Below, one piece after another: positions 2,739-25,498 of a stretch of 32,000 bases of DNA. Positions within the stretch are counted from its first letter, which is position 1, and every line of letters starts with the position of its first letter. A model generated the notes under the pieces. It was not told where the DNA came from. It made no database searches and was given only the letters and a program-made list of their open reading frames with translations. Made by a program: the position numbers and the translations under genes. This DNA is from an uncultured delta proteobacterium (GTDB lineage: Bacteria > Desulfobacterota > Desulfobacteria > Desulfobacterales > JAFDCJ01), in NCBI GenBank assembly GCA_963766255.1, contig CAVXZZ010000037.1:16960-48959 (forward strand), written 5' to 3'.

Positions 2739-3218
2739 ATGACAAAGCACCCGAAGTATTTTACTGGCTTCCTTGTACCGTGGTTTTTGTCAGCACCGCC
2801 CACGGGGAAGACGTGACATCATGACAGCCACGGCCATGTTTGTCTCGGAAAAAGAACCATTGCTTATGATCAGCGTCGCCAAAGACCATCTGACAGAGCA
2901 ATTGATCAATCAATCCGGAAAATTTACCCTGGTAATCGCCGGAGAAGACCAGCGCAAGCTGGCCATGCAGATCGGCAGTTATCAAAGGCGAGGCTGCAGA
3001 CAAATTTGAAAAATTTTCCATTCCAACCTTAAGCGAACAATCCGGCAATGCCCTGGTACCGGAAGGTGCGGCCGCCTGGATGGAATGCGAATGTGGAAAG
3101 CAGCCAGGATATCAAAGGGTACCGGCTGTTCATCGGCCGGGTGGTCGATCAACATGACACCGGCACACCGCCATTGATGTGGCAGAAGGATAAGTTTTTT
3201 GGCCTGAAACCGATTTAG
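2739..3218 (+). pseudogene. Decayed flavin reductase-like (FMN-binding split barrel) gene with several frameshifts
   Basis: RBS-like GGAAGG before ATG at 2739. Homology moves between frames: MTKHPKYF / TVVFVSTAHGEDVT / MTATAMFVSEKEPLLMISVAKDHLTEQLINQSGKFTLVIAGEDQRKLAMQIGS / DKFEKFSIPTLSEQSGNALVPEGAAAWMECE / NVESSQDIKGYRLFIGRVVDQHDTGTPPLMWQKDKFFGLKPI*. Confidence 0.7.
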
Positions 3219-3404: not shown

Positions 3405-4629
3405 ATGGAAAAACCACCCGCGATTGCCGTCCTTGGAACCTTCGACTCGAAATCCGAAGAGCACATTTTCTTAAAAAACCAGATTGAACAACGGGGAATC
3501 GGAACCTTGACCATCAATGTGGGAACCCGTATGCCTTCCCCGGTGCCGGTGGATCTGGATTTGCTCGAAATCGTCAAAGCCGGCAACCCGGCTATCGCCG
3601 ACGGCCGGGATAATATCATCAATGCCATGCTGCAGGAGGCCAAAGACCAAATCAAGAAACTGCATGGGGATGGCAAAATCAGCGGCATCATATCCGCCGG
3701 AGGCGGCACCGGAACCCATATCTGCACCACCATCATGCATGAACTGCCATTAGGGGTTCCCAAAGTCATGGTATCCACCGTGGCTTCCCGTGACATGTCC
3801 CGGGTCGTCGGCACCAAAGACATCGTTATGATCCACAGTGTCGCCGATTTATTGGGCGTAAACAGTATATCCGGCTTAATACTGGACAAGGCCGCAGCGG
3901 GCATATGCGGCATGGTTAAAAGCCACTGGCAACCGTCAGGGCAAAAAAAACGCATCGCCCTGCCCTTTTTCGGATTCATTACTCCGGGTGCCGAAGCCAC
4001 CCGCCAGGCCTTGGAATCACTGGGGTATGAAGTCATTGCCTTCCATGCCAACGGCATCGGCGGCATGGCGATGGAGGAGCTGGCCGCAGAAGGATATTTC
4101 CACGGCATTCTGGATCTGGCCACCCACGAACTGGCCGATGATTTAATGGATGGCTATTGCGGCGGAATCGGGCCCGCAGCGTTTTGAACCGGTGCCGGGC
4201 AGATCAATTCCCAGGCTGGTGGTTCCCGGGGGACTTGACTGTGCGGTGCTGGAATTTACCCGCACCAGCATTCCGAAACAATACGAAGATCGCAAAATCT
4301 TTTTTTACGACTTTCGCTCTGCCATTCGTTTGAATGAGGAAGAAACTTCTTTTTTAGCAGCTCAACTGGCAGAAAAGCTCAATAAGGACCCTGCTCATAT
4401 CAGGGTACTGGTGCCCACCAGGGGCTGGTCCGGTGCCGATAAACAAAACGGTCCCTTGTACGACCCGGACATGAATCAGGTCTTTCTCCAGAAATTCAGG
4501 CAAGTTATAGATTCTCAAATCGAAATCCAGGAAGTTGAACATCACATTAACGATAAAGCCTTTGGGCAAATTGCCGCAACTGTTATGGATAATATGGTAA
4601 AATGTGCTAAATTAGACAATCATTCATAA
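3405..4629 (+). CDS. Tm-1-like ATP-binding domain protein (UPF0261 family), paralog 1, split by one +1 frameshift (ORFs 3405..4187 and 4150..4629)
   Basis: Joined product ...THELADDLMDGYCGGIGP|QRFEPVPGRSIPRLVVPGGLDCAVLEF... aligns end to end with the 5435 ORF. The frame change is explained by one extra C in ATC GGG CCC GCA GCG. Confidence 0.82.
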
Positions 4630-5434: not shown

Positions 5435-6661
5435 TTGGCGAATTCACCAACAGCGCTGATGGTTGCGACCATGGATACCAAAGGCCAGGAAGCCATGTTC
5501 ATAGTTGAATGCCTCAAGGCCGAGGGCATTACCGTAAAGATAATGGATGCCGGTATTAAAGGTCAATGCCCGACCCCGGTGGATGTAACCCGCGAAGAAG
5601 TCGCCCGGGCCGGCGGAAAATCACTGCAGGACGTCCAAAATTTGGGTCATGAAGGCAAGGCCCTCGAAGTCATGACCAGCGGCGCCATTCAATGCGCCCA
5701 GGAATTATACCGCCAAAACCAGGTCCAGGGGGTCATTGGCCTGGGAGGATCCATGGGGACCACCCTTGGCAGCGGGGTGATGCGCAGCTTTCCGGTGGGC
5801 CTTCCCAAAGTCATGATATCCACCATGGCATCCCGCGACACACGCGCCTTTGTGGGAACCAAGGATATTCTCATGCTGCACTCGGTTTGCGACCTCGCGG
5901 GCCTGAACCGAGTCACCCGGAAAATTCTGCGCAACGGGGCCCTGGCCCTGGCGGGTATGCTGCGCTCGGCAGTACCGGATGACGCAGCCGATCAAAGGCC
6001 CCTGGTGTTTGTCTCCACTCTGGGAACCACCGAAGCCTGTGCCCAGCAGATCCGCAGAACCCTGGAAGAAAAGAACAACGAAGTCGTTATCTTCCACACG
6101 GTGGGATCAGGCGGAAAAGCCATGGAAGAGATGATCCAGCAGGAAGATATCTCAATGCTGATAGATTTATCGCTGCATGAAATGGCAGACCACCGATTTG
6201 GCGGTGACTACGATGCCGGTCCCCAACGCGGAACGGTGGCTCTGGATAGAAGAATCCCCACCATCCTCGTTCCCGGCAATATTGACTTTCTGGTCACCGG
6301 CCCTTTGGAAAACGCGCAAAAGCAATTTCCCAACCGCCCCTATCACTGTCACAATGCGGCCATTACGGTTGTCCGAACGAAGCAGGAGGAGATAAAGATA
6401 ATGGGCGAAACCATCGCCAGCCTGTGCAACAACGCCCAGGGACCTGTGAAGATTTTAGTCCCCATGAACGGTTTTTCGGCCTTTGATCACAAGGAAGGCC
6501 CTCTGCACGACCCCGAGGCGCCTGGGATCTTTATAAAAAGCCTGGAGAAAAATCTTAATGATAAATCCTGTTTGGAAGCATTGCCTTTCTACATCAATGA
6601 TTCCGAATTTGCCCGGGAAATTATAGATACGTTGTATCGCATCAACCCTGATATCTCATAG
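5435..6661 (+). CDS. Tm-1-like ATP-binding domain protein (UPF0261 family), paralog 2
   Basis: ALMVATMDTKGQEAMFIVECLKAEG...VIGLGGSMGTTLGSGVMRSFPVGLPKVMISTMASRDTRAFVGTKDILMLHSVCDLAG...; similar to ORFs at 3405 and 16996. Confidence 0.88.
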   Translation: MANSPTALMVATMDTKGQEAMFIVECLKAEGITVKIMDAGIKGQCPTPVDVTREEVARAGGKSLQDVQNLGHEGKALEVMTSGAIQCAQELYRQNQVQGVIGLGGSMGTTLGSGVMRSFPVGLPKVMISTMASRDTRAFVGTKDILMLHSVCDLAGLNRVTRKILRNGALALAGMLRSAVPDDAADQRPLVFVSTLGTTEACAQQIRRTLEEKNNEVVIFHTVGSGGKAMEEMIQQEDISMLIDLSLHEMADHRFGGDYDAGPQRGTVALDRRIPTILVPGNIDFLVTGPLENAQKQFPNRPYHCHNAAITVVRTKQEEIKIMGETIASLCNNAQGPVKILVPMNGFSAFDHKEGPLHDPEAPGIFIKSLEKNLNDKSCLEALPFYINDSEFAREIIDTLYRINPDIS

Positions 6662-6868: not shown

Positions 6869-7906
6869 ATGGCTGTAACGCATCCTTTATCTCCAGCAGA
6901 TATTCTATGGAATATATTAGAAGACTATGGCCATGACGCCGAATCTATATTTCTTGAGGAGGGCATCGATCGTGAAATGATTTTAAAACCGGGGGCGCGT
7001 ATTACCCACGCGAGGGTTGACAGCCTTTGGTCTAAAGTAAACGAACTGATAGACGATCCATGTTACGGGGTGCGGGGCGTAAAATTTTGGCACCCTTCCC
7101 ACTTTAATGCCTTAGGTTATGCCTGGCTTGCAAGCGGTACTTTGCGCGAAGCTCTTAGCCGTGCTGCCCGCTATGCTCACGTTATCGGGGAAGATAGGGA
7201 ACATCGGCTGGAGGATACGGCTGAAGGACTGACCGCTACGTTGTCCCATTCTCTGAAGCTGCCCGCCTTCATGGATTTGTCAATGGCAATTTTGATGTCT
7301 ATGTGTCGGCTTAATTACGGAGCGGAGTTAAACCCGGTGAATGTCAATTTTATCCACGCCAAGCCTGCCTGTGCCAGCGAGCACGATTCCTATTTCAATG
7401 CTCCGGTTAAGTTCAACGCTGATACCGACTGCCTTGCCTTACCGGCAGATGCTGTTGATAAACGCCTGCCGATTGGCAACCCACAGCTTGCCAAAATTCA
7501 CGACCAATATATCATCCGTTATTTAGCAAGATTGGACAAAAATAGCATTGTCCAGCACGTTAAAGGCGTGATTATTGACATGCTGCCTTCGGGTGGGGTT
7601 TCCAATGAAAAGGTGGCAAAAAGATTGAACATGAGTAAGCGAAACCTGCAGCGCAAACTGCAACTCGATCATACTACTTTTCGAACACTGCTGGGCAAGG
7701 TACGCCAGGAGTTTGCAGAAAATTATGTACACGATTCAGCCGTCAGTCTGATGGAGGTGGCATTTATTTTAGGATATTCGGATTACAGTTCTTTTTCGAG
7801 AGCTTATAAGCGTTGGACGGGGGTGTCGCCTGGTGAGGGAAGGCATGAGGCGTTGAATTCAAATCACAATCCACATACAGATATCATCGATCAGTACCGA
7901 GATTAG
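6869..7906 (+). CDS. AraC-family transcriptional regulator with large N-terminal ligand/dimerisation domain
   Basis: C-terminal VSNEKVAKRLNMSKRNLQRKLQLDHTTFRTLLGKVRQEFAENYVHDSAVSLMEVAFILGYSDYSSFSRAYKRWTGVSPGEGR is a canonical AraC double HTH. Confidence 0.93.
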   Translation: MAVTHPLSPADILWNILEDYGHDAESIFLEEGIDREMILKPGARITHARVDSLWSKVNELIDDPCYGVRGVKFWHPSHFNALGYAWLASGTLREALSRAARYAHVIGEDREHRLEDTAEGLTATLSHSLKLPAFMDLSMAILMSMCRLNYGAELNPVNVNFIHAKPACASEHDSYFNAPVKFNADTDCLALPADAVDKRLPIGNPQLAKIHDQYIIRYLARLDKNSIVQHVKGVIIDMLPSGGVSNEKVAKRLNMSKRNLQRKLQLDHTTFRTLLGKVRQEFAENYVHDSAVSLMEVAFILGYSDYSSFSRAYKRWTGVSPGEGRHEALNSNHNPHTDIIDQYRD

Positions 7907-8474
7907 CCGTTTTTTCGCCTTCACGCTTACCCAGTTTTTCTGAAGCCACCTTCCTGGCAGTCACCGTAAAAAACCATCCGGATAGGTTGGATCGCAGCCT
8001 ATCTAACCCTTCCCCATGTGATTCACCGAATCTGTCGATGTCGGTATAAAAACCGGATTTAGTGTAACGCCAGAGTTTATCAGCGTCTTTAACGATCATG
8101 TCATTTAGCGAACGCGGCTTTTGGCGGGAATCATGACCGTCGATGATCTCCAGAATCTTTTCCGTTTTAGAAGAATCATATTTTACTTGCTGCAGTATTT
8201 CCTGGGCGATTTTTACCCCTTCCACTTCATGGAGCCGATTTAACTCGGGTCTGCTTGTGTTGGGACCGAATGCCTTGAGATGCATATCGGCCGGCACGCC
8301 TTTCCAGCCGGTATCGTGCAGGATAATGGCCGGAATCACAATATCTTCTTCACCGCCTTCCCGTTCCAATAGCTCAAAAGCCAGCAGAGTCGATATTTCG
8401 GTATGAACATCATTGTGACGGGTGTTCAGAAAAGGCCTGGCAAGTTGCCGGATTTTTTCGAAAACAGATTTCAT
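7884..8474 (-). CDS. HD-domain phosphohydrolase-like protein
   Basis: TRHNDVHTEISTLLAFELLEREGGEEDIVIPAIILHDTGWKGV ... IDGHDSR...NDMIVKDADKLWRYT: HD motif. Start overlaps the lysR-like stop (8471..8474), suggesting translational coupling. Confidence 0.75.
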   Translation of the reverse strand: MKSVFEKIRQLARPFLNTRHNDVHTEISTLLAFELLEREGGEEDIVIPAIILHDTGWKGVPADMHLKAFGPNTSRPELNRLHEVEGVKIAQEILQQVKYDSSKTEKILEIIDGHDSRQKPRSLNDMIVKDADKLWRYTKSGFYTDIDRFGESHGEGLDRLRSNLSGWFFTVTARKVASEKLGKREGEKTANLGTDR

Positions 8475-9430
8475 TTGGCAGCTGTTCTTCGTTGGGCAAG
8501 TATTTTAGTCATCATCGCGCCTATACCCATGGGATCGATATCTGATGCCCTCAATTTTATCAAGGTATCCACAAAGGCCTTAGCGGGCGGCGAAAGGGGT
8601 TGATTTTTTAAATACGCAATGCTGACATCCAAATATATTTGCGGATTTTTTAATGGCACAGAAGCCAGTTTTTTTTCCCTCAACTCTAATGCGACGGCCT
8701 CTTTTACCACCATCGAGATACCGTCACTGCGCTGAACCAGCTGTTTGATAAATTCGGTATTACTGGTCTCCATTAAAATATCGGGCTCACAGTTCGCATT
8801 CGCAAATGACTGCTCTACCAGTTTCCGCGTTCCCGATCCTTTTTCTTTCATAATAAATGGCTCTTTCGCCAGATCTTCGAAAGACACAGCCTTTTTGCGC
8901 CTAAAAGGATGTTCGGGCGCTACGATGAGCGCCATTTCCTCTTTACTGAAGGGATGGAAATTAACTTCGGGCACGTCCTCTGCTTTGGCAATCACGGCTA
9001 CTTCATTTTTAAATTCAAGAAGGCTGTAGGTCATGTCCAGGGAACTGCCTTCATTTAACTGGATTTTGATGTCGGGGTGGCTTTCGTGAAAGCTAGTCAG
9101 CATCAGCGGCATGAAATAGCGGGCGTAGGCTTTAGTGGTTCCCAGGCTGAGGACTCCCCGCTTGAGTTCGTGCATGTCTTCAATGGCATTTTCGATTTCT
9201 TTTTCATGTTTAAAAATTTTTTCCGCATACCCATAAAGTGTCCGCCCCTCGTCGGTCAGGAACAAATTGCGTCCTTTTTTCCTGAACAGCTTTAAATTGC
9301 AGACCTCCTCAAAAGCCTTCATCTGGGCGGTCACGGCCGGCTGGGTGATAAAAAGCTCACCGGCCGCAACCGTATAATTCAAATTTTTGGCCGCGTGGTA
9401 AAAGACGCGCAATTGGTTGAGGTTTAGCAT
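8471..9430 (-). CDS. LysR-family transcriptional regulator, divergent from the PpsA-like gene
   Basis: N-terminal MLNLNQLRVFYHAAKNLNYTVAAGELFITQPAVTAQMKAFEEVCNLKLFRKKGRNLFLTDEGRTLYGYAEKI, typical LTTR HTH; periplasmic-binding-like C-terminus. Confidence 0.95.
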   Translation of the reverse strand: MLNLNQLRVFYHAAKNLNYTVAAGELFITQPAVTAQMKAFEEVCNLKLFRKKGRNLFLTDEGRTLYGYAEKIFKHEKEIENAIEDMHELKRGVLSLGTTKAYARYFMPLMLTSFHESHPDIKIQLNEGSSLDMTYSLLEFKNEVAVIAKAEDVPEVNFHPFSKEEMALIVAPEHPFRRKKAVSFEDLAKEPFIMKEKGSGTRKLVEQSFANANCEPDILMETSNTEFIKQLVQRSDGISMVVKEAVALELREKKLASVPLKNPQIYLDVSIAYLKNQPLSPPAKAFVDTLIKLRASDIDPMGIGAMMTKILAQRRTAAK

Positions 9431-9650
9431 GTTTCTCCAGAGATCAGATGGCAGAAGACAGAAAACAGATGGCAGATGCCATTGAATTCAGAAGGGTCTG
9501 GCTTTCACCGCGTAACCCGCAACGCGCAACCCGTAACAGAATCCAGTGGCCAGCAGCCACTGACAAGTGACGAAAAATTTTGCCTAAAAATTATTTATAT
9601 ATCCAATTGATAGATAAGCTGAGCTTATGGGTAACATAAATTTAATTGGT

Positions 9651-9679
9651 TTGACAGTTTTATTTTAATTGTTCATAAA
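9651..9679 (+). promoter_or_regulatory. Candidate sigma70-like promoter for the synthase/carboxylase cluster
   Basis: TTGACA (9651-9656), 17-nt spacer, CATAAA (9674-9679), in the divergent lysR/synthase region. Confidence 0.35.
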
Positions 9680-9868: not shown

Positions 9869-11725
9869 ATGGCAGATGACAAAGGCAGATTTCCGGATCC
9901 TCACGAGTTTAAAGTCCCCCCGGAGCTTGAAGGCTGGGAGGAAATGTATCCAACCCATCACCTGTTTTCGGAAGATCGGGCTGATTGGGAAAAAGCCCAA
10001 TTCTGGTATGCAGACAAAATCCACGCACCCGAACCTTTGCCTCCTCTGGACCTGATCTTTCAGGAAGCATGGCAGATCTCCCTGTCCCAGTATACGACCC
10101 GCGTATTTTGCATCCCCCCTGCCCAGGGAATTGCCCAGCGACTGGTGGGCTGTTATCTGTACATCTGCGCCATTGCCCCACCGCCCGATGAAATTATCGG
10201 TGAAAAAGCCGCACATTTTGAAAAACGGGTATTTTATGTCTTTGAACACTACGATGAATTGTGGGACAAATGGCTGACCAAATTTAAGGCCCTGGGGGAG
10301 GAAATGCGGGCGGTTAACGTGCCCTCGGAATTGCCTAAATATGTTGCCGATGACAAGGTTTTTCCAGCCCCCACGGGTTACTATGAAAGTTACGACCTGA
10401 TCGAGTCTTTCGACAAACTGGTCAACCAGATGTTCAAAGGCTGGCAGTATCATTTTGAAATGCTCAACTTGACCTACCTGGCCTATCTGATGTTTGCCGA
10501 TGTGTCCCGCAAGCTTTTCCCCGGAATCAGCGAAAGCGCCATCGGAAAGATGGTCGCCGGCGCCTATGTCTCCATGTTTCGACCGGAGGAGGAACTTTGC
10601 AGACTTTCCCGGCTGGCGGTGTCGTCTGATGGTGTCGGTGCTATTCTTGGCAGCGAAAAATCCGCCGCCGATAAGATTGCCGAGCTTCAACAATCAGAAG
10701 CCGGCAAGAACTGGCTGGCCGAATATGATAAATCAAGTGATCCCTGGTTTTATGTATCCAACGGCAGCGGCTGGTATCACCATGAGGGCAGCTGGCTGAC
10801 TGATCCTGACATTCCCTACAGTTATATCAAAGGCTACGTTCAAAGGCTGGAAAAAGGTGAGACCATTGAGCGCTCCCTGGATGAGATCGAGAAGGAACGC
10901 GATGAAATTGTCGCCGAGTACACCAAAATGATACAAACCGACGACGACCGCAAAGCCTTTGACGATGCCTACAACACCATTCGAACCATCTACCGCTACG
11001 CCGAGGATCATCTTTTCTGGGTGGAACATTGGTTTCACACCATCTGGTATAAAAAAATCAGAGAAATTGGATCCGTCCTGGTAGCCAGCGGAATGCTTAA
11101 TGATGTGGACGATATATTTATGTTCAACCGCTACGAAATTCCGCAGCTTCTGACGGAAGTGGCAACCGCCTGGGCCCTGGGTGTGGATATACCGACCCGG
11201 GGGGATCAGTATAAGGCCAAGGCCGCCAAACGCCGCAAAATCCTCGCGGCTGCCGCCGAATGGAACCCGACACCGGCGTTGGGCGTACCACCCGAAGAAG
11301 TGGCCGAGCCCTTCACCATCATGCTCTGGGGTATTACCACCGACAAGGTAAAAGAATGGCTCAAAGGTGTCGATGCAACCAGTGGCGCGGATGTCTCTGA
11401 AATCAAGGGGTTTGCCTCTTCGGCCGGCGTGGTTGAAGGTCCGGCCCGGGTCCTCAAGAGGCTCAAGGACATCACCAAGCTGCAACCGGGTGAAGTTCTG
11501 GTGTGTCCGTCAACCAATCCATCCTGGGCACCGGTTTTCACCAATATCAAGGCCGCGGTAACCGACATCGGTGGATTGACCAGCCATGCAGCAATTGTCT
11601 GCCGTGAATACGGCGTCCCGTCGGTAACCGGCTGCGGTTACGCTACAGCGGCTATCAAAACTGGAGATATTGTTAAAGTCGATGGTGATACCGGTGTTGT
11701 CACGATTGTCAAAAGAGCGGGTTAG
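9869..11725 (+). CDS. PEP-utilising enzyme with phosphohistidine domain; phenylphosphate synthase PpsA (70 kDa)-like
   Basis: 618 aa. C-terminus: GEVLVCPSTNPSWAPVFTNIKAAVTDIGGLTSHAAIVCREYGVPSVTGCGYATAAIKTGDIVKVDGDTGVV (PEP-utiliser mobile domain with TSHAA histidine). Large unique N-terminal region and separate ATP-grasp partner downstream. Confidence 0.8.
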   Translation: MADDKGRFPDPHEFKVPPELEGWEEMYPTHHLFSEDRADWEKAQFWYADKIHAPEPLPPLDLIFQEAWQISLSQYTTRVFCIPPAQGIAQRLVGCYLYICAIAPPPDEIIGEKAAHFEKRVFYVFEHYDELWDKWLTKFKALGEEMRAVNVPSELPKYVADDKVFPAPTGYYESYDLIESFDKLVNQMFKGWQYHFEMLNLTYLAYLMFADVSRKLFPGISESAIGKMVAGAYVSMFRPEEELCRLSRLAVSSDGVGAILGSEKSAADKIAELQQSEAGKNWLAEYDKSSDPWFYVSNGSGWYHHEGSWLTDPDIPYSYIKGYVQRLEKGETIERSLDEIEKERDEIVAEYTKMIQTDDDRKAFDDAYNTIRTIYRYAEDHLFWVEHWFHTIWYKKIREIGSVLVASGMLNDVDDIFMFNRYEIPQLLTEVATAWALGVDIPTRGDQYKAKAAKRRKILAAAAEWNPTPALGVPPEEVAEPFTIMLWGITTDKVKEWLKGVDATSGADVSEIKGFASSAGVVEGPARVLKRLKDITKLQPGEVLVCPSTNPSWAPVFTNIKAAVTDIGGLTSHAAIVCREYGVPSVTGCGYATAAIKTGDIVKVDGDTGVVTIVKRAG

Positions 11726-11852
11726 TATTTAGTTGAAGTGTTGATTGGTTGATTAGTTGTGGCCGTAGCTGAAATTCAGCTGAATCATACCGATTCGATT
11801 TCAACCAATTAGAAAATGCGCAAAACCTTCTAATCCAAAACGATAGTTCTCT

Positions 11853-11888
11853 CCCGGTTCCCGCCCCCTGATGGGGCTGGGAACCGGG
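11853..11888. promoter_or_regulatory. Strong intercistronic stem-loop between the PpsA-like and PpsB-like genes
   Basis: CCCGGTTCCCGCCCC (11853-11867) / CTGAT loop / GGGGC-T-GGGAACCGGG (11873-11888): 15 bp stem with one bulged T; no following T-tract. Confidence 0.6.
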
Positions 11889-11947
11889 AAGAAGGTGATT
11901 AACTTGCGCACTTTCAAAGATCCCCTATAATTTGCGGGAGAACGCTA

Positions 11948-13018
11948 ATGGACTTAATCCTGGATTTTAAAAAGCTCAATAAAAGTTCCCTGCCATTGGT
12001 CGGTGGTAAAAATGCCAGCCTGGGAGAAATGATCAATGCCGACATCCGGGTGCCTCCGGGCTTTGCCGTCACCACCGACAGCTATGCGGTGTTTATGGAA
12101 AAAGCCGGCATTAATGATACGATATTTAGTCTGCTGGCGGACCTGGATCCGGATAATATCGATGCACTCAACCAGGCCGCCGAAAAAGTCCAGGAAATGA
12201 TCAGAACTGCGGTCATCCCCGATGATGTCCAAAAAGGCATCAGCGACGGGTATTCTCTGCTGTGCGAACAATGCAAAGTTGATGCCCTTCCGGTGGCTGT
12301 AAGATCCAGCGCAACCGCCGAAGATCTGCCCACGGCCAGTTTCGCCGGGCAGCAGGACACGTATCTCTGGATAATGGGCGCTGACCGGGTTATTGAAAGC
12401 GTCCGCAAATGCTGGGCCAGCCTGTATACGCCGCGGGCCATCAGCTACCGGGTCAAAAATGACTTCCCCCATGAAAAGGTTCTGATCAGCGTCGGTGTTC
12501 AGAAAATGGTGAACTCAAGGGCAGCCGGCGTGATGTTCACCCTGAATCCCACCGACGGTGATATTTCCAAAGTTGTGCTTGAAGGCAGCTGGGGACTGGG
12601 AGAAACAGTCGTATCCGGTTCGGTCAACCCGGACAAATTCGTCGTCGACAAGGTCATGGGGGAGATCAATGACCGAACCATCTCTACCAAACACATCGAG
12701 TGTGTCTTTGACGTTGAAAAAGGAGAAACCATCGACGCCGATGTGGACGAAGACATGCAGTGCACCTGCTGTCTCGAGGACGAGGAAATAAAAGAACTGG
12801 TCAAAATAGCCAAAACAATAGAGGCCCACTACGGCCGCGCCATGGATATCGAGTGGGCCATCGACAAGGATTTTTCGTTCCCGGAAAGTATTTTCATTGT
12901 CCAGGCACGCCCGGAAACGGTCTGGAGCCAGCGCAAGGTAGAATCCAAGCTCGGCAAAAAAACCGGATATCAATTGTTGATGGATCAGGCCATGAAACGG
13001 ATTAAACTGCCGGGATAA
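11948..13018 (+). CDS. PEP/pyruvate-binding (PPDK N-terminal) domain protein; phenylphosphate synthase PpsB (40 kDa)-like
   Basis: 356 aa: LPLVGGKNASLGEMI...VPPGFAVTTDSYAVFM...RSSATAEDLPTASFAGQQDTYL...VKVMVNSRAAGVMFTLNPTDGD-type motifs...VLEGSWGLGETVVSGSVNPDKFVVDK...GRAMDIEWAIDK; lacks swivelling and PEP-binding domains. Confidence 0.85.
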   Translation: MDLILDFKKLNKSSLPLVGGKNASLGEMINADIRVPPGFAVTTDSYAVFMEKAGINDTIFSLLADLDPDNIDALNQAAEKVQEMIRTAVIPDDVQKGISDGYSLLCEQCKVDALPVAVRSSATAEDLPTASFAGQQDTYLWIMGADRVIESVRKCWASLYTPRAISYRVKNDFPHEKVLISVGVQKMVNSRAAGVMFTLNPTDGDISKVVLEGSWGLGETVVSGSVNPDKFVVDKVMGEINDRTISTKHIECVFDVEKGETIDADVDEDMQCTCCLEDEEIKELVKIAKTIEAHYGRAMDIEWAIDKDFSFPESIFIVQARPETVWSQRKVESKLGKKTGYQLLMDQAMKRIKLPG

Positions 13019-13360
13019 CGAAACAAAGAATTCGGAAGTAGGAATGCGGAATGTGGAAATCAAGGGAGGGTAAAGGGAGAAGGGCTTAGAATGCAAAATG
13101 GTAAAGGCCGCCAGCTAACGTCACGTTAAAGCCTGAGTATGTCACAGCAGGCAAGTGTTAAAACCCAGAAGTAAAAAACCAGATACGTGGCCTTTTGTAA
13201 TTCCACATTCCATATTTCAACTTGCGAATTCAAATACATCTGACATCTGTTTTCTGTCTTTGCTTGAGAGATACTTATGCATCTCCGAAGTAAGACCCAC
13301 TTAGGATAGAAATAAATATAATTCGTTAACTAAAAAATAAGAGAGGAGAACTGTATCAAA

Positions 13361-14794
13361 ATGAAAGACATGAGAGATTTTGTAGCAAAGGGCGAAGAAG
13401 TTGGTTTGTGCCAAAGGATCACCGCCGAAGTCGACTGGAACCTGGAACTGTCGCATATTGCCAAGCTCAATGAAGAGGCCGGCGGCCCGGCGCTTCTTTT
13501 TGAAAACGTGAAAGATTATGATACGCCGGTTATTACCAGTGTATGCACCACAACTAACAGGCTGGCTTTGATAATGGGCCAGCCCCTTGGATCCTCTCTG
13601 ACCGAGCTTTACGAAGAATGGGCCCGGCTCGGTGAAAACCTGGTTAAACCCAAAATGGTGGAATCCTCAGCCGCCCCCTGTAAGGAAAATATCCTGACGG
13701 GTGATGACATCGATCTTGCAAAGTTTCCGGTGCCGCACTGGTATCCCCGGGACGGCGGACGCTATATGGGCACCGCCCATTTCATCATCAGCAAAGACCC
13801 CGAAACCGGCTGGGTTAACCTGGGAACCTACCGCGGCCAGATGCTTGGCAAAGATAAGATGGGCACTTTGTTTATCAAGGGCAAACATGCCGACATCATG
13901 CTGAAAAAATACCAGGCCATGGGCAAGCCCATGCCGGTAGCTTCGGTAATCGGCTGCGATCCCTTGCTGTTTATCCTGGGCGCGGCCCGGGTCTCGGCAT
14001 TTACATCGGAATATGACGTCGCTGGGGCATTGCGCGGTGAACCCGTGGAAGTCGTCAAGGGGGAAACCGTGGACCTTCCCATACCGGCCCACGCGGAGAT
14101 CGTCATCGAAGGCGAAGTGGATGCCGACAAATTTATGGAAGAAGGCCCCTTCGGCGAATACACCGGGTATTATTCCGGTGTCGGCACGAACCCGCGCAAT
14201 TTCATCGATGTCAAATGCATAACCCACAGAAACAACCCCATTTTTTGGGGAACCACCGTGGGCCGGGCCGTCACCGACACCCATATGACCATGGCGCTTT
14301 CATACGGCGCAACCCTGTGGCAGCAGCTGCTGGCTATGAAAATTCCCGGACTCAAAGCGGTGTACTGCCCGCCCGAAGGCTCCGGACGATTCCTGGCCAT
14401 CATCTCCATTAAGCAGATGTATCCCGGACACGCCGACCAGGTACTCACCGCCGCCATCTCAACCGAGATGGGTGCCTACGGGCTCAAAACCGTCATCGTG
14501 GTGGACGAAGATATCGACCCCTGGGATATTCCCCGGGTCATGTATGCACTAAGCTTCCGCTTCCAGCCCAACCGGTCCCAGGTTATCAAACGCGGCCGGT
14601 CAACACCCCTGGATCCCTCGCTGCCCATCAGCGCCAGAGACATCACCGGCAGGTTGCTGCTGGATGCCACCATACCTTACGACTGGAAAGAGAAACCAAT
14701 CCCCATCAAATTGGATCCGGAAATGGTTGAAAAGGTCAAAGGCCGATGGAAGGAACTGGGCTTGGATAAAATTTCTTCGGATAAATACTTATAG
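13361..14794 (+). CDS. UbiD-family prenyl-FMN-dependent decarboxylase/carboxylase
   Basis: 477 aa: FPVPHWYPRDGGRYMGTAHFIISKDPETGWVNLGTYRGQMLG, IGCDPLLFILGAA, EGPFGEYTGYYSGV, GHADQVLTAA, VDEDIDPWDIPRVMYAL; upstream RBS GAGAGGAG. Confidence 0.9.
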   Translation: MKDMRDFVAKGEEVGLCQRITAEVDWNLELSHIAKLNEEAGGPALLFENVKDYDTPVITSVCTTTNRLALIMGQPLGSSLTELYEEWARLGENLVKPKMVESSAAPCKENILTGDDIDLAKFPVPHWYPRDGGRYMGTAHFIISKDPETGWVNLGTYRGQMLGKDKMGTLFIKGKHADIMLKKYQAMGKPMPVASVIGCDPLLFILGAARVSAFTSEYDVAGALRGEPVEVVKGETVDLPIPAHAEIVIEGEVDADKFMEEGPFGEYTGYYSGVGTNPRNFIDVKCITHRNNPIFWGTTVGRAVTDTHMTMALSYGATLWQQLLAMKIPGLKAVYCPPEGSGRFLAIISIKQMYPGHADQVLTAAISTEMGAYGLKTVIVVDEDIDPWDIPRVMYALSFRFQPNRSQVIKRGRSTPLDPSLPISARDITGRLLLDATIPYDWKEKPIPIKLDPEMVEKVKGRWKELGLDKISSDKYL

Positions 14795-14865
14795 CCGATA
14801 GCCCATAGCCCCGCCTTAGGCGGGGCTCATAGCAAAGGATTTCACTGCTATGGGCGTCAGCTATT
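14792..14865. promoter_or_regulatory. Nested inverted-repeat structure after the ubiD-like gene
   Basis: Inner hairpin AGCCCCGCC-TTA-GGCGGGGCT (14807-14827), outer arms GCCCATAG (14801-14808)/CTATGGGC (14848-14855). Confidence 0.5.
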
Positions 14866-14972
14866 GTTTAATAAATATCTTAGGCTATTTGCTTTCATTC
14901 AAAGTTAAAAGACCGCTGTTCTAACAATCAGATTACAGCTATGAACTATGGGCTTCTACTAGGAGGTATTAA

Positions 14973-16628
14973 GTGAAACCAATTCGCTATACACAGGAAA
15001 TGGTGGATGAATTTTTAAATGACGGATATTGGACCCAGGAGCTTTTTTATGATTTCTGGGAAAGAAACGCCCGCGAATTCGGCGACCAGGAAGCCCTGGT
15101 GGATTCAAAGTACCGCGTCACCTGGGCCGAGGCTAAAAAATTGGTGGATGCCATCGCCTACACCTGGGTACAGATGGGCATTCCCAAATCGTCCCGCATT
15201 ATTATTCAGTCGCCCAACAGTGTCTATGGATTCCTGGCACGCATCGCAGCTGAAAGGGCCGGTCTTATTTCTCTGACCGTCTACCCCTATTTGCGGGAAA
15301 GAGAATTGACCTACATGGTGGAGAGAACCGAGGCATCCGCCGTTGTTATTTTGAATGAATACCGCAATTTCAATTATCTTGAAATGTACCGCGATCTTCA
15401 GAAGAAATTCCCCCATCTGGAAAAGATTTTTCTCTTCGACGATGAAGTTCCGGCCGGAGCACCGGAAGGAACCTATTCGCTAACCCAACTGGCCCAGGCG
15501 GCGGCTGAAAAGCCCATCGACGAAGAGGCCCTTAAAGCACGCCGATTGGACCCAATTTGGGATATCGCCCTGCTGACAACGACATCGGGAACCACCGGCA
15601 TACCCAAACTGGTGGAATGGCCCACCGCCCCCCGGGTATGCACCTCGAAAGGCCGGGTGGATATCTGGGGCCTTACCAACAAAGATACCACCATGGCGAT
15701 TGCACCCCACGCCGGTGGTGCCGCCGGCACCCTCACCTATTTTGCCGCTCCCATAGCCGGTGCCAAGACGGTCATGCTGGAGGAATTCAATCCGGAAGCC
15801 GCTTTAGCCCTGATTGAAAAAGAGAAAGCCACCGCCATCGGGGTGGTGCCGACCCATCTGGTGCGAATGCTCGAAGTAGATGCCTCCAAGTACGACTTGA
15901 GCTCCCTGCGCTTTATCCGTTCCGCCGGTGGCTATCTCTCTCCCCAGATTGCTGAAGAAGCCGAAACCGCCTTTGGTGCCAACATTACCAGTGACCTGGG
16001 CACCCAGGACATGGGATCGGTTTCGGGTTGCCGGGTGGAGGATTCCAAAGACCTTCGCCGCCGAACCGTCGGGCGCATGCTACCGGGCAACAAGGTGAGA
16101 CTGCTCGACAAGGACACCAACGAGCCGGTGGCCGATGGCGAACCCGGGGTGTTGTATTTCAGAGGCCCCCATGCACCGGCCGGCTATTATCGCGACGAAG
16201 AATTGACGTCCACGGTTTTCGATCCCAAGGGCTGGACCACTACCGGTGATATTGTGAAATTTGACCAGGAATGCCTGTGGATCCTGGGCCGGGCCAAGGA
16301 CATGATTATTCGCGGCGGTCAGAATATTTATCCCGCGGAAATCGAAGGCCTGCTCAATGATCATCCCAAGGTCGCCTCGGTGGCCGTTGTGGGATATCCG
16401 GACCGGGAAATGGGGGAACGGACCTGCGCTTATGTCATCGCCAAAGGCGGCCAGGATTTCAGTTTTGAAGAAATGGTTGAATTTCTCAAGGGCAAAAAAC
16501 TGGCCATGTACAAACTGCCCGAACGCCTCGAAGTCGTTTCCGAATTCCCGGCCGTAGGTGATTCCGGGAAAGTAAATAAAGAAACGCTCAAAAAGGAAAT
16601 TGCAGAAAAAGTAGCCAAGGGCGAATAA
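14973..16628 (+). CDS. AMP-dependent (acyl/aryl) ligase, 2,3-dihydroxybenzoate-AMP ligase / aryl-CoA synthetase-like
   Basis: LLTTTSGTTGIPKLVEW (P-loop), LGTQDMGS, GWTTTGDIVKFDQECLWILGRAKDMIIRGGQNIYPAEIE, GKVNKETLKKEI. Confidence 0.87.
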   Translation: MKPIRYTQEMVDEFLNDGYWTQELFYDFWERNAREFGDQEALVDSKYRVTWAEAKKLVDAIAYTWVQMGIPKSSRIIIQSPNSVYGFLARIAAERAGLISLTVYPYLRERELTYMVERTEASAVVILNEYRNFNYLEMYRDLQKKFPHLEKIFLFDDEVPAGAPEGTYSLTQLAQAAAEKPIDEEALKARRLDPIWDIALLTTTSGTTGIPKLVEWPTAPRVCTSKGRVDIWGLTNKDTTMAIAPHAGGAAGTLTYFAAPIAGAKTVMLEEFNPEAALALIEKEKATAIGVVPTHLVRMLEVDASKYDLSSLRFIRSAGGYLSPQIAEEAETAFGANITSDLGTQDMGSVSGCRVEDSKDLRRRTVGRMLPGNKVRLLDKDTNEPVADGEPGVLYFRGPHAPAGYYRDEELTSTVFDPKGWTTTGDIVKFDQECLWILGRAKDMIIRGGQNIYPAEIEGLLNDHPKVASVAVVGYPDREMGERTCAYVIAKGGQDFSFEEMVEFLKGKKLAMYKLPERLEVVSEFPAVGDSGKVNKETLKKEIAEKVAKGE

Positions 16629-16633
16629 ATTGA

Positions 16634-16745
16634 GGAATGGATTCTGTTTAAATTTAAAAAAGTAGACAGGATTTACAGGATTATTAGGATTATTTTATTC
16701 CCGGTTTCCTGAAGAAACCGGGAATAGCCTATCCGCTTCGCGGAA
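16634..16745 (+). repeat. Dispersed repeat copy 1: GAATGGATTC ... GACAGGATTTACAGGATT ... hairpin
   Basis: GGAATGGATTC (16634-16644); GACAGGATTTACAGGATT from 16665; hairpin ATTCCCGGTTTC-CTGAA-GAAACCGGGAAT (16697-16725); then TCCGCTTCGCGGA. Confidence 0.75.
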
Positions 16746-16800
16746 GGAGTATCTTGTCACTACCAAACCTTCTAAACTAATATAGGATGTGGTCTTAACT

Positions 16801-16912
16801 CTTTTCCGCCGGCAGGCGGATGATACTTTCACGGTTTCTTCTGGAAACCGTGAAAATCTTGTAGATCCTGTTAATCCTGTCAAAATGTTTTTTAAAAATA
16901 GAATCCATTCAT
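16801..16912 (-). repeat. Dispersed repeat copy 2, inverted relative to copy 1
   Basis: Minus strand: GAATGGATTC (16910-16901), GACAGGATTAACAGGATC (16881-16864), hairpin TTTCACGGTTTC-CAGAA-GAAACCGTGAAA (16855-16827), TCCGCC-TGCC-GGCGGA. Confidence 0.75.
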
Positions 16913-16995
16913 TTTTCTATCTCAGATATGCTGGACCGCTTCTCATTACCTTGTGGCATCCAATAAATTCTTAACCGCGTATAGCAGGAAAATTT

Positions 16996-18207
16996 ATGCC
17001 AAAACCAGTTCTAGTTATTTCTACTCTGGATACCAAGGGGCAGGAGACCCTGTATCTCAAAGACAAATTAAGCGCCATCGGATTATCGCCCGTTGTAATG
17101 GACATCTCCGGGCGCGGCAGTGATATTGCCGGAATCGATGTTCCTGCGGCCCGTGTCGCGGAAGCGGGCGGCGGCGACTTTGAAGAAATGAAAAATTCCC
17201 GCGATCGAACCCGCATCACCAACATCATGATGGCAGGCGGTGCCCAGATTGCAGCTGATTTGCTGGCCGGGGGAAAGCTCGCCGGGGTTATTGCCCTGGG
17301 GGGATCAACGGGTTCTTTGATGGGCTCCGAGATAATGAGGTCACTGCCCTTCGGGATTCCCAAAGTGATGATTTCATCGACAGCTGCCCTGCCCGGTCTA
17401 TCCACCCGCTACATCGGGACCGGGGATATCGCCCTCTTCCATTCGGTGGTCGAAATATCCGGCGTTTCCAATCTGCTTAAAAATGTCATGGACCGCGCAG
17501 CCCACGCTTTAGCGGGAATGGTTGCCGATGATATCTCCTCACCCAAGGCTGAAAAGGGCAAAGCCATTGCCCTGACCATGCTGGGACCCTGTGAAAAATG
17601 CGCCAGTGCGGTGCGAATGGCATTGGAGCAGCACGGTTATCAGGTCATCGGATTTTCAGCCGCCGGCATAGGCGACCGCGCCATGGAAGACATGATCGCA
17701 GCAGGTTTTTTCCAGGGTGTCATCGATCTGGCACCGGGTGGTGTCGGCGAACATCACTTCGGTTTTATGCGGGATGCCGGCCCCCATCGTCTGGAAACCG
17801 CCGGGAAATCAGGCATCCCCCAGATTATTTCCACCTGCAGCGTAAACCACATGACCCCGGCCCGGTCCAAGTATAAATCGGAATACCACGAACGGCGCAA
17901 GTTCGATCTGGACAAATTGCGCACCTGGATCCGGCTGTCCCCTGATGAGTTAAAAGAGGTTGCCGGCATTTTTGCCGAAAAACTGAACCAGGCCAAAGGG
18001 CCGGTAACCGTCATAATCCCGACGGATGGATGGTCGGCAGCGGATTTACCCGGCAACGACACCCATGACCCGGCCGAAGACCGACTTTTTATTGAAGTGT
18101 TGCGGGAAAAACTCAAACCCGATGTTCAAATACTGGAAGTTGATGCCAACATGGAAGATCCCGAGTTTGCCAAAGCAGTGGTTGAAAACGCGTTAAAAAT
18201 ATTTTAA
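16996..18207 (+). CDS. Tm-1-like ATP-binding domain protein (UPF0261 family), paralog 3
   Basis: LVISTLDTKGQETLYLKDKLSAIG...VIALGGSTGSLMGSEIMRSLPFGIPKVMISSTAALPGLSTRYIGTGDIALFHSVVEISG...; 35 nt upstream of the ubiX-like gene. Confidence 0.88.
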   Translation: MPKPVLVISTLDTKGQETLYLKDKLSAIGLSPVVMDISGRGSDIAGIDVPAARVAEAGGGDFEEMKNSRDRTRITNIMMAGGAQIAADLLAGGKLAGVIALGGSTGSLMGSEIMRSLPFGIPKVMISSTAALPGLSTRYIGTGDIALFHSVVEISGVSNLLKNVMDRAAHALAGMVADDISSPKAEKGKAIALTMLGPCEKCASAVRMALEQHGYQVIGFSAAGIGDRAMEDMIAAGFFQGVIDLAPGGVGEHHFGFMRDAGPHRLETAGKSGIPQIISTCSVNHMTPARSKYKSEYHERRKFDLDKLRTWIRLSPDELKEVAGIFAEKLNQAKGPVTVIIPTDGWSAADLPGNDTHDPAEDRLFIEVLREKLKPDVQILEVDANMEDPEFAKAVVENALKIF

Positions 18208-18242
18208 TATGGGACACAGATAAATAACGACAAGAGGTTGTC

Positions 18243-18848
18243 ATGAACAAACGATTAGTTGTTGGAATATCAGGTGCCAGCGGGGTGACCTATGGCGTCA
18301 GGTTACTGCAGGTGCTTCAAGATACGGATTATGAAACCCATTTGATCATTTCAAAATCCGGTGAGTTAAATATCCAAATTGAAACGGATTATGATCCGGC
18401 TGATGTTAAAGCCATGGCCGATTATGTCTACGATCACAAAAACATCGCGGCATCCCTGGCCAGCGGATCCTTTTTGACCGCCGGCATGGTGGTGGTGCCG
18501 TGCACCATCAAGACCCTGTCGGGAATTGCCAACTCCTACAACGAAAACCTGCTGGTAAGAGCGGCCGACGTGACCTTGAAGGAAAAACGTAAATTAGCGC
18601 TGGTAGTCAGGGAAACCCCGCTGCACAAAGGGCATCTGCGATTATTGACCATGGCCGCCGACATGGGCGCCCATATCCTGCCCCCGGTGCCCTCCTTTTA
18701 CCACATGCCCAAGACCATCGAAGATATAATCGATCAAACCATCGGCAAAATTTTCGACTTCATGGGCATCGAGCACAATCTTTTCAACCGCTGGGGGGAA
18801 GAATCGAAAAATGCCGGGAAAAACGGCTCGCCGTTGAAGGCGGTTTAG
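18243..18848 (+). CDS. ubiX: UbiX-family flavin prenyltransferase
   Basis: VVGISGASGVTYGVRLLQVL...SGSFLTAGMVVVPCTIKTLSGIANSYNENLLVRAADVTLKEKRKLALVVRETPLHKGHLRLLTMAADMGAHILPPVPSFYHMPKTIEDIIDQTIGKIFD. Confidence 0.93.
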   Translation: MNKRLVVGISGASGVTYGVRLLQVLQDTDYETHLIISKSGELNIQIETDYDPADVKAMADYVYDHKNIAASLASGSFLTAGMVVVPCTIKTLSGIANSYNENLLVRAADVTLKEKRKLALVVRETPLHKGHLRLLTMAADMGAHILPPVPSFYHMPKTIEDIIDQTIGKIFDFMGIEHNLFNRWGEESKNAGKNGSPLKAV

Positions 18849-25284: not shown

Positions 25285-25299
25285 CAGATTTTTTTAAAA

Positions 25300-25393: not shown

Positions 25394-25498
25394 ACTTCAT
25401 GCGATCTATCGAATAATATACTGCCAGATCGGAAATGGAATGGTTCTGGGATGTCTGCCGGTCGGAGGAAGAGATAGGAAGCGGCAATGAACTATAAA

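Follow-up and report, generated by a model that had tools for sequence, protein, structure and literature searches.

Anaerobic phenol degradation is a textbook subject for denitrifiers, while in sulfate reducers it rests on one organism, Desulfatiglans anilini DSM 4660, whose phenol (phe) cluster occupies the locus tags H567DRAFT_02049-02059 (PMC6114531; PMC7500099). The locus considered here is a six-gene cluster on a 32,000-nucleotide stretch of DNA from an uncultured delta proteobacterium of the Desulfobacterales (GenBank assembly GCA_963766255.1, contig CAVXZZ010000037.1, positions 16,960 to 48,959 of the forward strand; the whole stretch is called the window). It is read as an operon by which an uncultured sulfate reducer of this order activates phenol, or a phenolic compound very close to it, under anaerobic conditions, with a probability of about 0.72. 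An earlier note on this DNA had described six genes on one strand in the order PpsA, PpsB, UbiD, ligase, Tm-1-like (UPF0261) protein and UbiX, and all six open reading frames (ORFs) were recovered on the plus strand in that order, at the same coordinates and with the domains it had named. Together with the regulatory elements they are as follows:

9869..11725, plus strand: PpsA-like alpha subunit of a two-component small-molecule dikinase, 618 aa, with the phosphoenolpyruvate (PEP)-utilizers mobile domain (NCBIfam NF006153)
11948..13018, plus strand: PpsB-like beta subunit, ATP-grasp, ATP-binding, 356 aa (PPDK_N, E 6e-122)
13361..14794, plus strand: PpcB-type UbiD (de)carboxylase dependent on prenylated flavin mononucleotide (prFMN), 477 aa (UbiD_N, UbiD, UbiD_C; TIGR02724)
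14973..16628, plus strand: adenylate-forming ligase, putative hydroxybenzoate-CoA ligase with an unusual pocket, 551 aa (AMP-binding, AMP-binding_C)
16996..18207, plus strand: UPF0261/Tm-1-like protein, the "c-type" operon copy, 403 aa (UPF0261 N- and C-terminal domains)
18243..18848, plus strand: UbiX flavin prenyltransferase (prFMN for UbiD), 201 aa (NF004685)
9613..9679, plus strand: operator and promoter of the operon (palindrome of the LysR-type transcriptional regulator (LTTR) kind, -35 and -10 elements; alignment of 44 loci)
8471..9430, minus strand: divergent LysR-type regulator (HTH_1 and LysR_substrate)

The denitrifier type is represented by the canonical phenol cluster of Azoarcus sp. 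KH32C on plasmid pAZKH (NC_020548.1, PGAP-annotated), which was found by tblastn against plasmids and reads sigma-54 regulator, ppsA, ppsB, CBS-domain ppsC, ppcB, ppcD, ppcA, ppcG, an extra UbiD gene, UbiX, DUF120, NUDIX and a PaaK-like ligase. In this Azoarcus/Thauera type (ppsABC-ppcBDAG) as in the window the pps genes precede the ppc genes and ubiX follows, and a DUF120 gene is associated with both. In contrast, the window lacks the CBS-domain PpsC, PpcA, PpcD, PpcG, the ORF7-type UbiD, the NUDIX hydrolase and the PaaK-like ligase of Azoarcus, its regulator is of the LysR and not of the sigma-54 type, and it carries UPF0261 proteins and a DhbE-like ligase, both missing from the Azoarcus cluster.

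The phe cluster of D. anilini is much more similar, the comparison being one of annotation, gene order and protein length and not of sequence identity. Its Pps-alpha (02052), Pps-beta (02051), Ppc-beta (02059), ligase (02058), UPF0261 protein (02057) and UbiX (02056) have 615, 358, 468, 552, 403 and 193 aa, near-identical to the 618, 356, 477, 551, 403 and 201 aa of the window proteins in the same order; UbiX, UPF0261, a "2,3-dihydroxybenzoate-AMP ligase" and Ppc-beta stand on consecutive locus tags, the same contiguous block as in the window. Like the window cluster, that of D. anilini belongs to a strictly anaerobic sulfate reducer and has neither PpcC nor PpcD. The two differ in that D. anilini has 4-hydroxybenzoyl-CoA reductase genes between the pps pair and the ppc block and also has, in 02049 and 02050, a PaaK-like ligase and a receiver-domain protein of 165 aa, none of which is found in the 32-kb window, whereas the window has the LysR regulator and two extra UPF0261 paralogs. 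The published D. anilini protein masses gave no exact match to any ORF, and when the window alpha subunit, the window UPF0261 protein and a Desulfatiglandales ligase were used as queries, the best 120 matches listed for each were all close homologs from metagenome-assembled genomes (MAGs), with none from D. anilini.

All six phe proteins are most abundant in phenol-grown cells in the published proteome table (PMC7500099). The areas of replicate 1, in the order 4-aminobenzoate, aniline, benzoate and phenol, are 0, 5.0e7, 5.3e7 and 2.5e9 for the UPF0261 protein 02057, detected almost only with phenol, and 8.5e8, 8.0e8, 6.6e8 and 1.26e10 for the ligase 02058, which is 15-19 fold up with phenol, while the receiver-domain protein 02050 is about 6-fold up in the same replicate (PMC7500099). 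For the authors 02058 has no known function, and 02057 is not mentioned in the texts of their papers (PMC6114531; PMC7500099); two questions they explicitly left open are how the energy cost is covered and which role the co-induced dihydroxybenzoate (DHB)-AMP ligase plays (PMC6114531). The phenol-induced proteins of D. anilini are 42, 38, 49 and 56% identical to those of Thauera (Xie & Muller, PMC6114531), and for three of the four proteins the identities between the window and Azoarcus are close to these values.

Related module logic is found in the aniline (ani) cluster of D. anilini, made of Pas-beta, a UPF0261 protein (03869), an acyl-CoA synthetase (03870), Pas-alpha and Ppc-beta (03872), so that a dikinase pair, a Ppc-beta-type UbiD, an acyl-CoA synthetase or ligase and UPF0261 are common to it and the window. 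It differs in gene order and in having an amine substrate with a phosphoamidate intermediate; its UPF0261 protein 03869 was detected only in cells grown with 4-aminobenzoate and aniline (PMC7500099). CreHI, acting on 4-cresol, and HpeHI/AcvAB, acting on hydroxyphenylethanones, resemble the window pair in having separate proteins of about 70 kDa (swivel and substrate domains) and 40 kDa (ATP-grasp), with a fold like that of rifampin phosphotransferase (RPH) and the His motif; the downstream chemistry is different, with a P450 or a biotin carboxylase followed by a phosphohydrolase in the Cre/Hpe pathways and UbiD/UbiX in the window.

According to the preferred reading, the 356-aa ATP-grasp protein would present ATP to His573 of the 618-aa protein, as homology and fold suggest, and the beta-phosphoryl group would pass to the phenolic hydroxyl (ATP + phenol + H2O -> phenylphosphate + AMP + Pi). 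The PpcB-type UbiD, with prFMN made by UbiX from FMN probably supplied by a DUF120 riboflavin kinase, would then carboxylate the ring para to the oxygen as the phosphate leaves, giving 4-hydroxybenzoate, a step to which the equivalog match and the biochemistry of D. anilini and Thauera point; the ligase, judging by its position, would convert the acid to its CoA thioester. The divergent LysR protein would act at a conserved palindrome beside a sigma-70-type promoter, and the operon UPF0261 protein would be an obligate component of the carboxylase module in this variant, most likely handling the phosphoryl group of the aryl phosphate. Domain thresholds, synteny and the likeness to the phenol-induced phe cluster all support what the earlier note had proposed, namely activation of a phenolic substrate by phosphorylation and then carboxylation. 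That note had also regarded the gene order and the Tm-1-like proteins as a possible variant of the known system: the locus does differ from the denitrifier type, but the arrangement is not new, because the phe cluster already has a UPF0261 gene, and the window cluster is a member of the published and partly understood D. anilini-type kind. What the comparison adds is that UPF0261 is a constant companion of the PpcB-type carboxylase and is absent where PpcA and PpcD are present.

Dikinase pair and carboxylase

The sole Pfam domain of the PpsA-like protein is the PEP-utilizers mobile (swivel) domain at residues 539-609, and the protein scores 854 bits against NF006153 (cutoff 578). Its catalytic motif, T565-D-I-G-G-L-T-S-H573, follows the general form T-x-x-G-G-x-x-S-H with a Ser preceding the His, and His573 is invariant in a 40-sequence family alignment; a Ser before the catalytic His is reported for PpsA and CreH (PMC12167813). 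A Thr two residues before this His (GGLT[S/C]H, residues 569-573) is present in the whole window clade and its sister P0123, at a position held by Met in most other family members. Solved structures match the protein by sequence only through the swivel domain. For an AlphaFold2 model built from the 40-sequence alignment (pLDDT 90.8, pTM 0.90), the only full-length structural match is rifampin phosphotransferase (RPH-Lm, 5fbt; E 8.5e-19, TMq 0.63, 632 columns), and the first ~500 residues have a fold like that of the rifampin-binding domain in RPH. The same pattern of an RPH-like fold was described for the two-component aromatic dikinases PpsAB, CreHI and HpeHI in the HpeH paper (PMC12167813).

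The PpsB-like protein is a stand-alone PPDK_N ATP-grasp domain, whose PDB match is 9goj, a single-chain ATP-grasp protein of 387 aa that was deposited under the name "phosphoenolpyruvate synthase" and has a single citation in the HpeHI paper. Among characterized relatives the Azoarcus PpsB is closest to it (53.8% identity, compared with 46.8% for Rhodococcus CreI), and the PpsA-like protein is 41.5% identical to PpsA of Azoarcus KH32C and 39.9% to CreH, in line with the PpsA-like and PpsB-like character that the earlier note had given the two proteins. The window pair has the composition of a two-component aromatic dikinase, that is, a ~70-kDa swivel protein with an RPH-type N-terminal domain encoded next to a ~40-kDa ATP-grasp protein; a PpsAB-type activity, phosphorylating a phenolic OH with release of AMP and Pi, is predicted from sequence and model.

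The UbiD protein passes the equivalog model TIGR02724, "phenylphosphate carboxylase subunit beta", with 504.8 bits (cutoff 468.95) and stays below the cutoffs of the other equivalogs, with 230 bits for PpcA (TIGR02723, 564.6), 252 for PRK10922 (788) and 276 for the menaquinone model TIGR03701 (496); the VdcC model is not passed either. Its identity to the Azoarcus KH32C proteins is 48.8% for PpcB, 34.6% for PpcA and 30.2% for the extra, ORF7-type UbiD. These results speak for an aromatic substrate, where the earlier note had asked whether the UbiD might fall in a non-aromatic clade. An alternative start at 13388 would give 468 aa, the length of most homologs. No gene of the cluster is more conserved than UbiD, with identities of mostly 85-94% between loci, falling to 73-83% in those that are most distant. 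UbiX scores 260.8 bits against NF004685 (cutoff 188), and its identity to the UbiX encoded in the Azoarcus phenol cluster is 53.1%. There is no second UbiD gene (PpcA) in the 32-kb window, no ORF for a KdsC-type PpcD or a gamma-like PpcC/G in the window or its intergenic gaps, and no gene or remnant of the PpcC/PpcD-like, receiver-domain, low-molecular-weight phosphatase or PAC_bac kinds in its long intergenic gaps. Compared with the Thauera-type alpha-beta-gamma-delta carboxylase, the window thus has PpcB and UbiX and lacks PpcA, PpcD and PpcC/G.

The pair could also be thought of as a split PEP synthase of gluconeogenesis that lies by chance near UbiD and UbiX genes of quinone biosynthesis, with no aromatic catabolism, the possibility by which the earlier note had proposed to judge its own reading. 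The beta subunit does score best against PEP synthase N-termini (421 bits), and alpha is annotated as "pyruvate, water dikinase" in its sources. However, PEP synthase, PPDK and enzyme I align to the alpha model over the ~120-residue swivel domain only, the PEP/pyruvate-binding TIM-barrel was found in neither protein (TIGR01418 covers only alpha residues 512-612 and beta residues 3-334), the UbiD falls on the PpcB side and not with the quinone-biosynthesis models, and the six-gene order is conserved as a unit. Since the full-length fold is RPH-like and the catalytic motif is kept, the split PEP synthase is excluded, and chance proximity is contradicted by the data to the point of having practically no probability.

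Conservation, ligase and choice of substrate

A scan of species-representative genomes found PpsA relatives in 269 stretches, of which the best 80, at least 77% identical, are numbered here as loci with the prefix L; nearly all come from Desulfobacterales, Desulfatiglandales or unclassified "Deltaproteobacteria" MAGs, with a few bins labelled otherwise, and one is an Olavius-associated Delta-1 symbiont bin. Synteny was counted by tblastn of all window proteins against these loci, considering only those with enough downstream DNA. PpsB directly follows PpsA in 63 of 66 loci and UbiD is present in 51 of 57; at least 8 kb of downstream sequence is available in 35 loci, of which 23 have the full PpsB-UbiD-ligase-UPF0261-UbiX series and six the same order without the ligase. 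An arrangement of six genes kept in this way is far beyond chance. In the wider databases the 618-aa protein has more than 1,800 homologs, the best 120 all being 80-93% identical and the named ones belonging to Desulfobacterales or "Deltaproteobacteria" MAGs. At the 50%-identity level the window alpha clade stands alone, and the next representatives (45, 42 and 39% identical) occur in other contexts, with a PpsB partner or none, and in none with UbiD or UPF0261.

The most informative variant is L038, from a Desulfobacteraceae MAG (6028-14819), in which a PpsA 79% identical to that of the window is followed by a canonical PpcB (653 bits), two PpcD-like genes and PpcA, and further by an extra UbiD, UbiX and a PaaK-like ligase, with no UPF0261 and no DhbE-like ligase; the window PpsA clade is therefore tied to a bona fide phenylphosphate carboxylase.

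Other loci vary in the composition of the module. Between UbiD and UPF0261 the ligase is replaced by a stand-alone receiver-domain protein of ~170 aa in L015, L016, L011, L050, L055, L071 and L074, a ligase being present also in L071 further downstream, after UbiX; protein 02050 of D. anilini is a receiver of this same kind. A PAC_bac (PF21758) protein of ~128 aa is added in several variant clusters, with the genes after UPF0261 in L016, L041, L071 and L075, and in L067 (Desulfatiglandales, 16781-17422) a homolog of low-molecular-weight phosphotyrosine phosphatases lies between ligase and UPF0261. L080, a Desulfatiglandales MAG, has a second, divergent PpsA/PpsB set upstream on the opposite strand (alpha 46%, two beta-like proteins 35% and 41%) and no UbiD within 10 kb downstream of its main ppsAB pair; by analogy with Pas in D. 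anilini, this second set may be a paralogous system for another substrate. In L001 (Desulfobacterales MAG CP070771, complete, 7.2 Mb; 13603-14941) UbiD is cut to 237 aa and immediately followed by hisG, the carboxylase, ligase, UPF0261 and UbiX part being lost and LysR, PpsA, PpsB and the upstream UPF0261 paralogs remaining.

The ligase passes no NCBIfam equivalog (TIGR02275 gives 262 bits, cutoff 724). Its best PDB matches are DhbE (249 bits) and a salicylate-AMP ligase (224 bits), with benzoate-CoA ligase at 123 bits, and at the positions of the DhbE pocket residues H234, N235, Y236 and S240 it has G, G, A and T; by its sequence it belongs to a distinct subfamily without the DhbE/EntE-type pocket. 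A gentisate- or salicylate-type ligase, considered on the basis of the best PDB matches under a hydroquinone hypothesis, was rejected as evidence, the DHB/salicylate-binding residues not being conserved. In the other clusters the ligase slot is taken by an acyl-CoA synthetase (ani) or by a PaaK-type ligase (L038 and Azoarcus), and from this shared position a hydroxybenzoate-CoA ligase is therefore the most economical assignment; because the DHB/salicylate-binding residues are missing, CoA-ester formation is put forward from this position, the acid being probably thioesterified by the enzyme.

Several observations weigh against the phenol reading. Neighbour-joining with 200 bootstraps places the window alpha subunit as sister (99.5%) to a haloarchaeal and metagenomic group that includes a Natribaculum plasmid gene flanked by Rieske oxygenase, aldehyde dehydrogenase and phosphatase genes, a group standing in aerobic "phosphorylate then oxidise" contexts, and in none of the 200 bootstrap trees is it sister to Azoarcus PpsA. 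The substrate therefore is not readable from the alpha-subunit phylogeny; the beta subunit, in contrast, is closest to Azoarcus PpsB. The ligase pocket is unlike that of every characterised aryl-acid ligase compared. No 4-hydroxybenzoyl-CoA reductase gene is found in the 32-kb window, where the route onward to benzoyl-CoA is not visible. Finally, the gaps between the genes (11726-11947, 13019-13360, 14795-14972 and 16629-16995) measure 179-368 bp and hold hairpins, which bears on the assumption of a single transcript.

The same chemistry could serve another substrate, such as catechol, hydroquinone, o-cresol, aniline or a natural marine phenolic, with the ligase acting on the matching substituted benzoate. 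Family members with different substrates have alpha subunits that differ by ~55-60%, and PpsA, CreH and others all lie equally far from the window clade; the ligase is overall most similar to enzymes activating ortho-hydroxybenzoates; the cluster is extremely widespread in MAGs from marine and other sediments and occurs in the Olavius symbiont, where phenol need not be the main substrate; and D. anilini itself uses a paralogous set, including UPF0261 and an acyl-CoA synthetase, for aniline. Against this stand the ligase without DHB/salicylate-binding residues, the coupling in L038 of a closely related PpsA to canonical PpcABD, the fact that phenol, unlike aniline or benzoate, induces the corresponding D. 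anilini cluster, and the much greater divergence of the aniline-specific Pas-alpha, only 28% identical to Thauera Pps-alpha (D. anilini papers) compared with 41.5% between the window protein and its Azoarcus homolog, a difference that counts against aniline. Because of the D. anilini proteomics, the low similarity of Pas-alpha and locus L038, the evidence favours phenol over catechol, cresol and hydroquinone, and a different substrate, although a serious contender, is rather unlikely.

UPF0261 proteins and phosphoryl handling

The first UPF0261 protein with a known activity, described in 2025, is MarK (multiple aromatic kinase; Saro_1862, PDB 9MPY) of Novosphingobium aromaticivorans, which phosphorylates phenolic OH groups with conversion of ATP to ADP, and whose residues D14, T15, K16, G195, H219 and H304 are >90% conserved among its homologs (PMC12624787). 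MarK and the window proteins belong to the same two-domain family and both are tied to a pathway of aryl phosphates and carboxylation; MarK, however, feeds a biotin-dependent side-chain carboxylase in an aerobe, whereas the partner in the window is a UbiD ring carboxylase in anaerobes. The Tm-1-like paralogs to which the earlier note had drawn attention are indeed present, one intact and one split, among the genes upstream of the regulator:

7884..8474, minus strand: HD-domain phosphohydrolase, candidate aryl-phosphate phosphohydrolase, related to HD proteins of cre (4-cresol phosphate) clusters
5435..6661, plus strand: UPF0261 paralog "b", MarK-like, candidate ADP-forming aryl-OH kinase, with both Pfam domains
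4998-5417: toxin-like PIN-domain gene between the two upstream UPF0261 paralogs
3405..4629, plus strand: UPF0261 paralog "a", frameshifted, two ORFs corresponding to the N- and C-terminal halves of the family
2741..3215, plus strand: frameshifted flavin reductase remnant, located by tblastn with the L001 protein
1139..1567, minus strand: DUF120/CTP-dependent riboflavin kinase (PF01982)
423..1124, minus strand: HAD-IA phosphatase (HAD_2)

MarK residues 6-398 were rebuilt from the HMMER alignment and then aligned with the window paralogs. The operon copy matches MarK (9mpy) over its full length (E 5.5e-52) and keeps the D-T-K triad of the ATP site and Gly195, while the phenol-binding His219 and His304 are replaced by Ser and Leu; its Desulfatiglandales counterparts have the same Gly-Pro...Ser pattern. 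Paralog b, 40% identical to MarK, keeps D14, T15, K16, G195, T196, H219, F283 and H304, with I285 changed to Val and H348 to Phe, and is syntenic by tblastn in L001-L004, L006, L025, L029 and L033. Judged by G195, H219 and H304, paralog b has the phenol-binding residues of MarK and the operon copy does not, and paralog b is a good candidate for an ADP-forming aryl kinase. Paralog a has a D-S-K triad, G195 and H219, and a Tyr in place of H304; its halves, in two reading frames, are 72% and 71% identical to the intact L001 ortholog, and one extra nucleotide near 4175, compared with L002 and L003, splits the gene, which is either a pseudogene or the product of an assembly error.

A UPF0261 gene follows UbiD in 31 of 31 informative loci and is absent both from L038, the one locus with PpcA/PpcD, and from the Azoarcus KH32C cluster, which has PpcA and PpcD. 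The loci without ligase carry a third UPF0261 subtype, in which Arg replaces Lys16; the ~170-aa receiver-domain protein and, in several of these loci, the PAC_bac protein go with it.

The HD protein shares 41% identity with an HD protein from the cre locus of Rhodococcus ruber and 31% with the one occupying the CreD position; in the cre pathway the aryl phosphate is taken off by an HD protein, CreD. The window protein is syntenic by tblastn in L005, L008, L012, L014, L023 and L027, and a relative with 32-35% identity lies between UPF0261 and UbiX in L030, L046, L056, L062 and L065. The accessory proteins, namely UPF0261, receiver-domain, PAC_bac, low-molecular-weight phosphatase and HD proteins, are all from families that make, carry or remove phosphoryl groups.

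The relationship of the HD protein, encoded beside the LysR gene, to the cre clusters would also suit a scheme of the Cre/Hpe style, in which phosphate serves only for protection or as a handle, another part of the aryl phosphate is modified before the HD hydrolase finally dephosphorylates it, and UbiD decarboxylates or acts on a side chain. The sister clade of the alpha subunit adjoins metallophosphoesterase, HAD phosphatase, Rieske oxygenase and aldehyde dehydrogenase genes, and the MarK and HpeHI pathways phosphorylate before a side-chain carboxylation. However, no oxygenase, P450, biotin carboxylase or dehydrogenase module is found in the window and the related loci, the UbiD passes the PpcB equivalog cutoff, and the hosts are strict anaerobes according to MAG taxonomy; such a scheme is very improbable here.

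Returning to ring carboxylation of phenylphosphate as the preferred reading, the absence of UPF0261 where PpcA/PpcD are present and the phosphoryl-type nature of the accessories lead us to infer that UPF0261 and its partners are an alternative way of handling the phosphoryl group of the carboxylase. The UPF0261 protein would most likely deal with the phosphoryl group of the aryl phosphate, standing in for PpcA, PpcC and PpcD of the denitrifiers. The stronger claim, that UPF0261 is an integral, previously unrecognised component of phenylphosphate carboxylase in strict anaerobes, replacing PpcA/PpcC/PpcD and managing this phosphoryl group, is a tentative one, more probably wrong than right. In its most attractive version the protein may run the MarK reaction in reverse (phenylphosphate + ADP -> phenolate + ATP), which would hand phenolate to UbiD and recover one ATP, and paralog b may be an ADP-forming phenol kinase bypassing PpsAB at high substrate levels. 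The conversion of aniline to 4-aminobenzoate in vitro with D. anilini proteins needed only two Pas and two Ppc-beta proteins; UPF0261 is therefore not strictly essential for turnover.

Regulation, neighbouring genes and biological meaning

The 438-bp spacer between LysR and ppsA holds a block conserved in 44 loci, with the palindrome CATAA-N7-TTATG and an invariant TTGACAG; the 80% consensus reads CATAA-N7-TTAT...CATAAA...AATT...TTGACAG...CATA. In the window the LTTR-type palindrome GATAAGCTGAGCTTATG lies at 9613-9629, the -35 element TTGACA at 9651-9656 and, after a 17-nt spacer, the -10 element CATAAA at 9674-9679, and a ribosome-binding site AAGGAGG precedes ppsA at 9856-9862. A LysR gene, 57-89% identical, is upstream of ppsA in most loci, and the block 9613-9679 has the layout expected of a LysR-controlled sigma-70 promoter, a role assigned to it here from its sequence. 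A generic scan for promoters and terminators gave no excess over the shuffled expectation, and Rfam gave no match. Several of the operon gaps contain GC-rich hairpins, for example CCCGGTTCCCGCCCCCTGATGGGGCTGGGAACCGGG; CCCGGTTTCCTGAAGAAACCGGG; AGCCCCGCCTTAGGCGGGGCT; the gaps are weakly conserved in the closest loci and contain no small ORFs.

Among the upstream genes, which also include an AraC regulator gene, and a methyltransferase gene on the strand opposite to the operon, the DUF120 riboflavin kinase is 32.4% identical to the product of the DUF120 gene directly after UbiX in the Azoarcus phenol cluster and is syntenic by tblastn in L001, L002, L004 and L073. L001 has near DUF120 an intact Flavin_Reduct protein of 159 aa, of which the window has a remnant in two frames, by tblastn, with several indels relative to L002. 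The riboflavin kinase probably supplies FMN for UbiX, and together the kinase and a flavin reductase would fit the provision of FMN/FMNH2. The insertion in paralog a and the indels of the flavin reductase, relative to L002 and L003, reflect either decaying genes or assembly indel errors. The HAD-IA phosphatase is phosphoglycolate-phosphatase-like with a score under the cutoff and is syntenic with the riboflavin kinase, occurring by tblastn in L002 and L004 and weakly in L025, L029, L033 and L073; its role in the cluster is uncertain. The place of the PIN gene is taken in L001 by two unrelated hypothetical genes, a sign of a probable hot spot for insertions.

Downstream of the operon there are unrelated-looking genes and a pair of AOR and Fe-S proteins. 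The minus-strand genes 23854-25284, 25569-26066, 26277-28217 and 30947-31978 form a block (window positions 23854-31978) whose products are a protein of 476 aa without any Pfam or NCBIfam match, a poly-ferredoxin of 165 aa, a tungsten/molybdenum enzyme of the AOR family and an EutA-like ATPase. The AOR block is near the pps cluster also in L003, L016, L058 and L062, and L009 has the 476-aa gene alone; a link to the metabolism of aromatic aldehydes or acids is possible. An assignment of the AOR and Fe-S pair as BamBC of class II benzoyl-CoA reductase was rejected, the Pyrococcus AOR scoring 312 bits and BamB 207 bits.

As for the biology of these organisms, the form commonly taken by the cluster in uncultured sediment Desulfobacterales and Desulfatiglandales, and in a worm symbiont, is the D. 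anilini type. The activity of MarK turns genes so far called hypothetical into a testable hypothesis on phosphoryl handling and on the ATP economy of anaerobic aromatic carboxylation. If the UPF0261 protein were indeed an integral component of the carboxylase, this would answer how sulfate reducers can afford an AMP-forming activation of phenol.

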